Positions 6,794-10,610 of a stretch of 64,000 nucleotides of DNA are shown piece by piece; the stretch's first letter is position 1; every line of letters starts with the position of its first letter. The notes under the pieces were generated by a model that saw only the letters and a program-made list of their open reading frames with translations, ran no database searches and was not told the DNA's origin. The translations under genes and the position numbers were made by a program. Origin of the DNA: Escherichia coli (GTDB taxonomy: Bacteria > Pseudomonadota > Gammaproteobacteria > Enterobacterales > Enterobacteriaceae); assembly GCF_024502345.1 (NCBI RefSeq), contig NZ_JALDNN010000001.1; one strand, given 5' to 3'.

Positions 6794-9148
6794 CTATTTT
6801 GCAGTCACAACCTGCATGCCAGACGGTTCATTTTGCAGCGCCAGAGTCAGAACTTCCTCAATGCGCTTCACAGGATGAATGTCCAGATCGGCAATTACGT
6901 TGTCAGGAATCTCTTCCAGATCGCGTTTATTTTCGAACGGAATTAGCACTGTTTTAATCCCGCCGCGATGCGCTGCCAGGAGTTTTTCTTTCAAACCACC
7001 GATCGGCAGTACCTGACCACGCAGAGTGATCTCACCGGTCATTGCCACATCGGCACGAACCGGGTTACCGGTCAGGCAAGAAACCAGCGCGGTGCACATA
7101 GCAATACCGGCACTCGGACCATCTTTCGGCGTCGCACCTTCCGGTACGTGGACGTGGATGTCACGTTTTTCGTAAAAATCAGGGTTGATCCCCAGTTTTT
7201 CCGCACGCGCACGAACCACCGTTAACGCCGCCTGAATAGACTCCTGCATCACTTCGCCGAGCGAACCGGTATAGGTCAGTTTGCCTTTACCAGGAACACA
7301 TGCGGTTTCAATGGTCAGCAAGTCACCGCCCACTTCCGTCCACGCCAGACCGGTTACCTGACCGACACGGTTTTCGTTATCAGCGCGACCATAGTCGAAA
7401 CGCTGAACACCGAGGTAGTCATGCAGGTTATCGCCGTTAATTTCGATATGTTTTAATGACTTATCGAGCAGTAACTGCTTAACCGCTTTGCGGCACAGTT
7501 TGGAGATTTCACGCTCCAGACCACGCACGCCCGCCTCACGGGTGTAGTAACGAATAATGCCGATAATGGCGCTATCGTCGACGGTCAGCTCACCTTTTTT
7601 CAGTGCATTACGTTCAATCTGCTTCGGCAGCAGGTGACGTTTGGCGATGTTCAGTTTTTCATCTTCGGTATAACCGGAGAGGCGAATCACTTCCATACGA
7701 TCCAGCAGCGGTGCCGGAATGTTCATGGAGTTCGACGTCGCGACAAACATCACGTCGCTGAGATCGTAATCCACTTCCAGGTAGTGGTCGCTGAACGCTA
7801 CGTTCTGCTCTGGATCCAGCACTTCAAGCAGTGCAGAGGCCGGATCGCCTCGCATGTCAGAAGACATTTTGTCGATCTCATCGAGCAGGAACAGCGGGTT
7901 TTTCACGCCCACTTTCGCCATTTTCTGGATCAGTTTACCCGGCATAGAACCGATGTAAGTACGGCGGTGACCACGGATTTCCGCTTCATCACGCACGCCG
8001 CCCAGCGCCATACGGACATATTTACGCCCGGTGGCTTTGGCAATGGACTGACCAAGAGAGGTTTTACCTACCCCCGGCGGCCCTACCAGGCAGAGGATCG
8101 GTCCCTTGATTTTGTTGACACGGCTTTGAACCGCAAGGTACTCAAGGATGCGATCTTTCACGCGCTCCAGACCATAATGGTCGGTATCAAGGATTTCCTG
8201 CGCCTGACGCAGGTCTTTTTTGACCTTGCTGCGCGCATTCCACGGTACCTGTACCATCCAGTCGATATAACCACGCACTACGGTCGCTTCTGCCGACATC
8301 GGAGACATCATTTTCAGCTTCTGCAACTCTGCTTCCGCTTTCTCTTTTGCCTCTTTCGGCATCTTCGCCGCGTCGATTTTGCGCTTCAGGGCTTCGTTTT
8401 CGTCCGGCGCGTCGTCCATTTCACCGAGTTCTTTCTGAATAGCTTTCATTTGCTCGTTCAGATAGTACTCACGCTGGGATTTCTCCATCTGCTTTTTAAC
8501 GCGGTTGCGAATGCGTTTCTCAACCTGCAGCAGATCGATTTCCGATTCCATCATTGCCATCAGATATTCCAGACGTTCGTTAACGTCGGACATCTCCAGA
8601 ACGGACTGTTTGTCAGCCAGTTTCAGTGGCATATGTGCAGCAATGGTATCCGCCAGACGCGCCGGATCGTCGATGCTATTCAGCGACGTCAGCACTTCTG
8701 GTGGGATTTTTTTGTTCAGCTTGATGTAGCCTTCGAACTGGCTGATTGCAGTACGCACCAGCACTTCCTGTTCCCGCTCATCAATGGTCGGCGACTCCAG
8801 ATACTCCGCCTTCGCAGAAAAGTGTTCGCCATTGTCAGAGAGCGCAGAAATACGCGCGCGCTGTAACCCCTCGACCAGCACTTTGACGGTGCCGTCAGGC
8901 AGTTTCAGCATCTGCAATATAGAGGCCACGGTCCCGACGGTGAAAAGATCGTTTACACCCGGCTCATCCGTTGAAGCTTCTTTCTGCGCGACCAGCATAA
9001 TTTTTTTATCATGGTCCATCGCCGCTTCCAGACAACGGATAGATTTTTCCCGCCCGACAAATAAGGGGATGACCATGTGCGGATAAACCACCACATCGCG
9101 CAGCGGCAATACGGGGATTTCAATGCGTTCAGAACGCTCAGGATTCAT
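6794..9148 (-). CDS. lon: ATP-dependent protease Lon
   Basis: ORF track 6794..9193; start placed at [13 protein letters not shown] (ATG 9146-9148) for 784 aa; Walker [10 protein letters not shown] and catalytic PSAG motif present. Confidence 0.97.
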
Positions 9149-9250
9149 AGAGCTCTCTCTTAGTTTAATTTCCGCCAGGTAATCAGATGACACGACTGTG
9201 CTTCACGCCATCTATTAACATGTACGTCAGTATATGGGGATGTTTCCCCC
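9149..9250 (-). promoter_or_regulatory. lon: lon promoter region (heat-shock sigma-32 dependent)
   Basis: Upstream of lon start; sigma-32 control of lon is established; exact -35/-10 not mapped here. Confidence 0.4.
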
Positions 9251-9251
9251 A

Positions 9252-9308
9252 CATTCAACGCCGAGAATAGAGGAAAAATTAAAGGGGAGATAAAATCCCC
9301 CCTTTTTG
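9252..9308 (+). ncRNA. sraA: candidate small RNA SraA antisense-orientated in the clpX-lon spacer
   Basis: Placed from recalled literature location in the clpX-lon intergenic region on the opposite strand; the sequence ends in a GC hairpin plus T-run (9281-9308) that would terminate a plus-strand transcript. No covariance model was run. Confidence 0.3.
9281..9308 (-). terminator. clpX terminator hairpin (bidirectional)
   Basis: ggggag-ataaaat-cccccc with flanking T-runs on both strands. Confidence 0.5.
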
Positions 9309-9335
9309 GTTAACTAATTGTATGGGAATGGTTAA

Positions 9336-10610
9336 TTATTCACCAGATGCCTGTTGCGCTTCCGGCTTACCATAAATCAGCAACGGTTTGCTTTGACCAT
9401 CAATTACCGACTCGTCGATAACCACTTTTTCGACATCTTCCATGGACGGCAGATCGTACATGGTATCGAGCAGTGCGGCTTCTACGATGGAACGCAGGCC
9501 ACGGGCACCGGTTTTACGCGCCATCGCTTTCTTAGCGATAGCATCCAGCGCCTCGTCACGGAATTCCAGATCCACGCCTTCCAGATTAAACAGCGCCTGA
9601 TACTGCTTGGTCAGGGCGTTTTTCGGCTCTTTGAGGATCTGAATCAGAGCTTCTTCGCTCAGTTCATTCAACGTTGCGACAACCGGCAGACGACCAATAA
9701 ACTCAGGGATAAGACCAAACTTGATCAGATCTTCCGGTTCAACCTGCGCCAGCAGCTCGCCTTCGCTTGCTTTGTCGGACTTCGCTTTTACCGTCGCGCC
9801 AAAACCAATGCCGGAGCCGGTTTCTACACGGTGGGAAATCACTTTATCCAGACCGGCAAACGCACCGCCACAAATAAACAGGATCTTGGAGGTATCAACC
9901 TGCAAAAATTCCTGCTGCGGATGCTTACGCCCGCCCTGCGGTGGAACGGCAGCAACAGTACCTTCGATCAGTTTCAACAGTGCCTGCTGTACGCCTTCAC
10001 CGGAAACGTCACGGGTAATAGACGGGTTGTCCGACTTACGAGAAATCTTGTCGATTTCATCGATGTAGACAATACCACGCTGTGCTTTCTGGACATCGTA
10101 GTCGCATTTCTGCAACAGCTTCTGAATGATGTTTTCAACGTCTTCACCCACATAACCGGCTTCGGTCAGTGTAGTCGCGTCGGCCATGGTGAACGGAACA
10201 TCCAGCAGGCGCGCCAGCGTTTCAGCCAGCAGCGTTTTACCGGAACCGGTCGGACCGATCAGCAGAATGTTACTTTTGCCCAACTCGACACCATTGCTGG
10301 TATCGCCGTTGCGCAGACGTTTGTAATGGTTGTATACCGCGACCGCCAGCACTTTTTTCGCCTGTTCCTGGCCGATAACGTAATCGTCCAGGTGGTTGCG
10401 AATTTCATGCGGCGTCGGTAGCGCACTGCGTTCACGATGCGGTGCAACTTCTTTAATCTCTTCGCGAATGATGTCGTTACATAAATCAACACATTCGTCG
10501 CAGATATACACGGATGGACCGGCAATCAGCTTGCGCACTTCATGCTGGCTTTTGCCGCAAAAAGAGCAATACAGCAATTTGCCTGAGCCATCTTTGCGTT
10601 TATCTGTCAT
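9336..10610 (-). CDS. clpX: ATP-dependent Clp protease ATP-binding subunit ClpX
   Basis: 424 aa ORF with N-terminal zinc-binding CSFCGK...CDEC and Walker A GPTGSGKT. Confidence 0.97.

Follow-up and report, generated by a model that had tools for sequence, protein, structure and literature searches.

SraA is said to have been first reported by Argaman et al. in 2001 from a northern blot, for which strand-specific probes were reportedly used, and the band is reported to have been roughly 120 nt long, at odds with the annotated length of 57 nt. A Salmonella review (PMC3384567) counts it among the E. coli-type sRNAs and locates it between clpX and lon, and in 2025 it was still among the EcoCyc sRNAs (PMC12306157). 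Overexpression of SraA produced no biofilm, motility or fimbriae phenotype in a screen of E. coli sRNAs (PMC4606813), and a Salmonella sraA deletion that scored in a mouse pool was not reproduced individually (PMC2698986). Also, a scoring scheme for Tn-seq data picks out the Salmonella locus (PMC9176671), an RNA-seq study reports SraA in all conditions (PMC12266141), and a study of Yersinia ruckeri describes regulated reads at the locus (PMC12112432); in both RNA-seq studies the reads may come from either strand. Deletions of lon have been designed to spare 'the overlapping coding region for SraA' (PMC11251521).

Our study concerns this locus in a window of 64,000 nucleotides, an E. coli chromosome segment in reverse orientation, with the order tig, clpP, clpX, lon, hupB on the minus strand. 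Both clpX and lon thus run in one direction; the start codon of lon is the ATG at 9148 (-), in place of the GTG of the longest ORF, and the gene ends at 6794. Measured from the ends of both genes, the spacer covers 9149..9335 and has the 187 bp that an earlier, sequence-only reading had given it. Its identity to the MG1655 spacer is 100%, and of the 5,425 E. coli records that match it, 5,411 do so at 99% or more. The Rfam family RF02029 (sraA) matches the plus strand of the spacer with 106.7 bits (E = 6e-17, model positions 1-95 of 95, gathering threshold 56 bits) and is the sole family above its gathering score in the window, which bears out the claim that an SraA locus lies here on the strand opposite to clpX and lon. 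The interval proposed for it, 9252-9308, stood in part: it equals the classic 57-nt annotation, whose coordinates 457952..458008 (old MG1655 numbering) we take to correspond to these positions, while the Rfam match is wider (9220-9315) and has 32 more nt on its 5' side, where it comes within a base of the lon TSS. This correspondence is consistent with records that have the spacer at 457925..458111 (W3110-type coordinates), and also with the 'antisense to sraA' labels assigned under a +/-50 bp rule in the supplements of PMC7815308. We found no feature in the spacer, sraA included, in the RefSeq record NC_000913.3, which does carry chiX as ncRNA, and none in W3110 or in 60 PGAP RefSeq genomes sampled at regular intervals along the ranked hits. 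The locus is already known and has been catalogued since 2001; the small RNA itself is weakly supported. The features discussed below are collected in Table 1.

Table 1. Features in and around the clpX-lon spacer (window positions; arrows give the reading direction on the minus strand).
Feature	Position	Strand	Remark
Rfam RF02029 (sraA) match	9220..9315	+	reaches from the lon TSS to slightly beyond the clpX terminator
Interval of the sequence-only reading, equal to the classic 57-nt sraA annotation	9252..9308	+	presumed coordinate correspondence
Terminator hairpin AAAGGGGAGAT-AAA-ATCCCCCCTTT	9281..9305	both	11-pair stem, 3-nt loop; core GGGGAGAT/ATCCCCCC plus AAA/TTT pairs
clpP-clpX terminator U-tract TTTAATTTTT	9274..9283 (9283->9274)	-	RNA 3' end mapped at 9278
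Plus-strand T-run, TTTTT then GG	9303..9307	+	putative SraA termination site; equals the clpX terminator A-tract read backwards
lon -35, TTGAAT	9253..9258 (9258->9253)	-	invariant ATTCAA block in the alignment; promoter scan
lon -10 region, sigma-32-type CCCCATAT	9239->9232	-	invariant ATATGGGG block; whole region 9229..9239
Sigma-70-like TATACT	9234->9229	-	overlaps the sigma-32-type -10 of lon; promoter scan
lon transcription start	9221..9224	-	Cappable-seq and SMRT-Cappable-seq
lon 5' leader	9149..9220	-	near-invariant block CCTGGCGGAAnnTAAACTAAGAGAGAGCTCT directly upstream of the ATG; alignments
clpX CDS	9336..10610	-	ORF list; position identical to b0438 of NC_000913.3; stop codon 9336-9338
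GGGG-N6-CCCCC palindrome (GGGG-ATGTTT-CCCCC)	9236..9250	both	in the lon promoter spacer, between -35 and -10; 5' hairpin of the Rfam model

The primary identity of the hairpin in this spacer is that of the clpP-clpX intrinsic terminator. It begins 31 nt past the clpX stop codon, and its GC-rich stem-loop is followed directly by a U-tract, as in intrinsic terminators. Term-seq by Adams et al. lists a 3' end at 458758(+), which is window position 9278, in two of three conditions (PMC7815308, supp. 1), and in SMRT-Cappable-seq the clpPX transcripts from three clpP promoters all stop at 458758/9 (PMC6131387); the mapping of the window to NC_000913.3 coordinates was checked. Because both the Term-seq signal and the full-length reads end at 9278, the hairpin is the terminator of clpPX in vivo. 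In the same Term-seq work this 3' end is flagged 'Rho: Yes' (PMC7815308), and a bicyclomycin-sensitive (Rho) termination region is placed in the lon 5' leader, at about window position 9205 (-) (NC_000913.3 458831, score 1.78; PMC7815308 supp. 2). These flags hint that Rho may attenuate read-through, or the lon leader, to some extent.

The sequence-only reading had described a hairpin plus T-run readable on both strands, and with respect to shape we confirmed it: the hairpin stands between an A-tract and a U-tract, which gives each strand a hairpin followed by a U-run, and a consensus scan calls it on both strands. The same scan found five terminator-like sites in 8900-9600, against 0.7 +/- 1.0 from shuffles. 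The minus-strand face has 11 pairs including a G.U (-14.5 kcal/mol) and 8 U in its 10-nt tail; the plus-strand face contains an A.C mismatch (-10.6 kcal/mol) and has 7 U of 10, just 5 of them contiguous before GG. With respect to use, a 3' end is listed on the clpX strand only, and the flanking genes run in the same direction. No plus-strand (sraA-strand) 3' end occurs in 4587xx in the Term-seq table over three growth conditions (PMC7815308), a table that is thresholded and that a weak 3' end could escape. The strand-specific data examined, having the clpX-strand end (9278) and lacking the sraA-strand end, go some way against the earlier proposal of a discrete plus-strand RNA of 55-60 nt that ends at this hairpin, and they do not back it. 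SMRT-Cappable-seq size-selects long RNAs. Its operon tables hold no reverse-strand unit at the locus (PMC6131387), and the method is probably blind to an RNA of 60-120 nt.

How general the two-faced shape is was seen in 80 gammaproteobacterial clpX-lon loci, each with its spacer delimited, of which 40 were scanned with Rfam; 25 Enterobacterales spacers were aligned with MAFFT. A terminator-like hairpin follows clpX in 76 of the 80 loci, and its reverse face is systematically weaker (mean -14.7 vs -16.4 kcal/mol; 6.2 vs 8.0 U of 10). RF02029 matches half of the scanned loci (20/40), belonging to Enterobacteriaceae, Pectobacteriaceae, Yersiniaceae and Erwiniaceae, and all 20 keep the position between clpX and lon and the opposite strand; the scanned loci of Photorhabdus, Providencia, Arsenophonus, Budvicia, Rosenbergiella, the Pantoea-like symbionts, Vibrionales and Shewanella gave no match. 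The antisense face is terminator-like in Vibrio and Shewanella loci, and those that were Rfam-scanned have no sraA match. Yersinia loci match RF02029 at about 80 bits, yet their plus-strand tail has 3-4 U, and the tail is also degenerate in Klebsiella sp. Since the antisense face occurs in Vibrio and Shewanella without sraA, and sraA in Yersinia without the tail, the two-faced shape is a general property of terminators: it is an A-tract mirroring the U-tract, and not the signature of an antisense gene. Three Colwellia species (loci L079-L081) conserve, as the hairpin after clpX, a perfect palindrome of unusual length (about 54 nt, -35 to -39 kcal/mol), in contrast to the short terminators elsewhere; this palindrome may represent a repeat element or another type of terminator.

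The remainder of the Rfam match lies over the lon promoter. The motif TTGAATGTGGGGGAAACATCCCCAT at 9258->9234 (-), upstream of the lon TSS, has the form of a sigma-32 promoter. We take the -10 and -35 elements of lon to be of the sigma-32 type from the known consensus, so that the dependence on this factor is a predicted one. TTGAA-N13-17-CCCCAT is found in 65 of the 80 gammaproteobacterial spacers and in 0 of the shuffles. Cappable-seq places the lon TSS at 458039 of U00096.2 (window 9221, score 188.9; PMC4782308), and SMRT-Cappable-seq at 458812 (window 9224; PMC6131387). In these two data sets minor minus-strand TSSs surround the main start, at 9155, 9177, 9204, 9256-9257 and 9312, with scores of 1.5-6.5 against 189 for the main one; one of them falls inside the -35 region and another upstream of the terminator hairpin. 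Downstream, the leader block CCTGGCGGAAnnTAAACTAAGAGAGAGCTCT (9149-9179, -) is near-invariant from Escherichia to Photorhabdus, beyond the needs of a Shine-Dalgarno sequence, and RNAalifold gives for the lon leader merely a trivial 4-pair helix, without covariation.

Between the two promoter hexamers lies a GGGG-N6-CCCCC palindrome that is the known insertion hot spot of IS186. Its stem, GGGG(A)/(U)CCCC, is complete in Escherichia only, and the promoter spacer varies freely in other genera. Among 5,424 matching E. coli genomes, 55 are without an intact one-piece spacer. In one record, NZ_CP137696.1, the spacer breaks at about 9233, abutting an IS421/IS186-family transposase, with the entD/fepA region in place of lon. 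In agreement, IS186 insertions beside sraA and the lon TSS were described in phage-resistant mutants of MG1655 (PMC12844343).

Scored by halves, the Rfam match gives 48.7 bits for 9220-9268 (promoter) and 44.8 bits for 9269-9315 (terminator), neither of which reaches the threshold alone. Within the match, just two blocks are invariant over the 25 Enterobacterales spacers, ATATGGGG (9232-9239) and ATTCAA (9253-9258), and these are the -10 and -35 of lon read backwards; the other invariant blocks of the spacer are the ribosome-binding region and start codon of lon. The terminator helix shows compensatory changes, on both sides, in 10 of its 11 pairs. In the same alignment none of the 9 pairs of the two 5' helices of the model covaries and shuffling has no effect, one arm being invariant because it is the lon -10 element. 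On the plus strand 83-88% of the cells of the 5' helix still pair through G.U, above slid controls, an excess that is expected, according to the warning of the tool, when the structure derives from one of the aligned sequences. What is catalogued as 'sraA' or RF02029 consists of two elements, the promoter of lon and the terminator of clpX, seen from the other strand, and, as far as the aligned spacers tell, conservation at the locus is that of the terminator and the promoter, not of an RNA gene.

These observations bear on the idea that SraA is a trans-acting sRNA gene, between 57 and about 120 nt long, which has a promoter of its own, acts on targets elsewhere and overlaps the lon promoter by chance. 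The listing in E. coli and Salmonella sRNA catalogues (PMC12306157, PMC3384567), the spread of RF02029 over four enterobacterial families and the Tn-seq score of the Salmonella locus (PMC9176671) would agree with it. However, every invariant base belongs either to the lon promoter elements or to the terminator stem, with no separate conserved single-stranded seed, the 5' helix lacks covariation, and there is no conserved plus-strand promoter. In comparison with Hfq-type sRNAs, no conserved block other than the lon promoter hexamers was found, and the plus-strand tail is 5 U followed by GG. Additionally, mutations at the locus would necessarily strike the lon promoter or the clpX terminator and may in this way confound Tn-seq and deletion signals, the deletion phenotype was not reproduced (PMC2698986), and overexpression had no phenotype (PMC4606813). 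A trans-acting gene is for us the least probable of the explanations considered, and a very remote one.

No plus-strand sigma-70 promoter passes the consensus scan. A relaxed search gave ATGACA-18-TCTATT (+; TCTATT at 9211-9216), with 9 of 12 matches and a predicted start at about 9223, which is weak and without the key A at position 2 of the -10, and TTAACA-18-GATGTT (+; TTAACA at 9215-9220, GATGTT at 9239-9244), with 8 of 12 matches and a predicted start at about 9251, whose -10 has 3 of 6 matches and whose -35 is confined to the closest genera. These relaxed candidates show no conservation beyond Escherichia, Citrobacter, Kluyvera and Enterobacter. A divergent start from the symmetric -10 of lon (GTATAT/TATATG at 9230-9236) was considered as a further candidate and may occur. 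Because the candidate start at about 9251 coincides with 9252, the 57-nt annotation can be read as a predicted promoter-to-terminator span; in this sense, the sequence suggests that the annotated 5' end is the promoter prediction of the original screen and not a mapped end. On the plus strand, an ORF of 16 codons (MYVSIWGCFPHIQRRE; ATG at 9220, TAG at 9268-9270) shares its first base with the Rfam match. It lacks a Shine-Dalgarno sequence, its ATG is kept in the closest genera only and it carries a 1-nt deletion in Kluyvera, and it is most likely due to chance.

The coincidence at 9252 is also what one would expect if there were no discrete plus-strand RNA at all, and SraA had come from a prediction of promoter plus terminator together with a northern signal of ambiguous origin, such as a fragment of the clpX 3' end or of the lon leader, or imperfect strand specificity. 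The annotated 57 nt disagree with the band of roughly 120 nt that was reportedly seen, Term-seq has no plus-strand end, and the feature is absent from the RefSeq records that were checked; abundant minus-strand RNA, in turn, has a 3' end (9278) and a start (9221-9224) precisely at this locus. Nevertheless, the original authors are said to have used strand-specific probes, and complete absence is unlikely given that low-level antisense transcription is pervasive in E. coli. Later RNA-seq papers also count SraA reads (PMC12266141, PMC12112432). We regard the absence of any discrete RNA as unlikely, while taking it seriously.

A different reading gives the plus-strand RNA a role in cis. SraA would start at about 9220-9251, cross the -10 and -35 of lon and stop at the reverse face of the clpX terminator; as the polymerase footprints overlap, initiation of SraA and of lon would be mutually exclusive, tuning basal Lon levels. 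The start of the Rfam match at 9220, abutting the lon TSS at 9221-9224, fits this geometry, and the two relaxed candidates stand face to face with the lon promoter. The plus-strand terminator face would be usable in E. coli, with 5 U after a GC-rich stem, and constitutive detection was reported (PMC12266141). However, both candidate promoters are weak for the reasons given above, Term-seq is without a plus-strand 3' end, Yersinia keeps the lon promoter but loses the plus-strand U-tail, and no phenotype was reported (PMC4606813, PMC2698986). A functional cis-antisense RNA of this kind seems to us quite improbable. In its narrower form, a real promoter-antisense RNA would have its start sites within a few bases of those of lon (about 9220-9224), the promoters would compete for RNA polymerase and set basal Lon, and the reverse terminator face would be kept to confine transcription; we hold this to be very improbable.

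The explanation that we consider most likely, with some reserve, takes SraA to be an antisense by-product, made at a low level and stopped at the reverse face of the clpX terminator, the weaker of the two. The clpPX terminator (-), like many strong terminators, owes its terminator look on the plus strand to an A-tract upstream that mirrors the U-tract, and the predicted sigma-32/sigma-70 promoter of lon (-), at 9229-9262, immediately adjoins it. A plus-strand RNA, if made, would be promoter-proximal and of low abundance, and may arise from weak or spurious initiation in the AT-rich leader and promoter region of lon; it would then be halted by the reverse face of the clpX terminator before running antisense into clpX. 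We infer no independently selected function of SraA. Against the by-product reading we count the northern blot attributed to Argaman et al. in 2001, the EcoCyc listing, the RNA-seq reads, the G.U pairing of the 5' helix and the thresholds of the Term-seq tables.

The biological stakes are small, and nothing suggests a new mechanism. If it were true that an antisense transcript regulates lon, it would add an extra layer of control on a major protease, which is at present unsupported. Since 'sraA' mutations damage the lon promoter or the clpX terminator, SraA phenotypes from Tn-seq and pooled mutants need caution. Furthermore, the case calls for care in annotation, as an Rfam sRNA family passes its threshold in four enterobacterial families while its conserved bases all belong to a promoter and a terminator of the opposite strand.

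Compared with the described systems, the locus is the type locus of RF02029 itself, E. coli sraA (psrA, t15), with the same position, strand and synteny and without difference in sequence. Unlike a typical sRNA family, sraA owes half of its score to the promoter of lon, and its covariation is confined to the terminator helix. With bidirectional intrinsic terminators it shares the symmetric A-run/hairpin/T-run architecture, readable on both strands; these, however, usually lie between convergent genes, whereas here clpX and lon point the same way, so that there is no convergent gene to require the second face, which is weaker and without a mapped 3' end. With the clpP-clpX intrinsic terminator the agreement is complete, the GC-rich hairpin, the U-tract and the mapped 3' end all coinciding. 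The same holds for the lon heat-shock promoter of the sigma-32 type (TTGAA-N14-CCCCAT), whose exact motif is present at 9232-9258 (-) and lies across from the 5' half of the sraA model, which is on the opposite strand.
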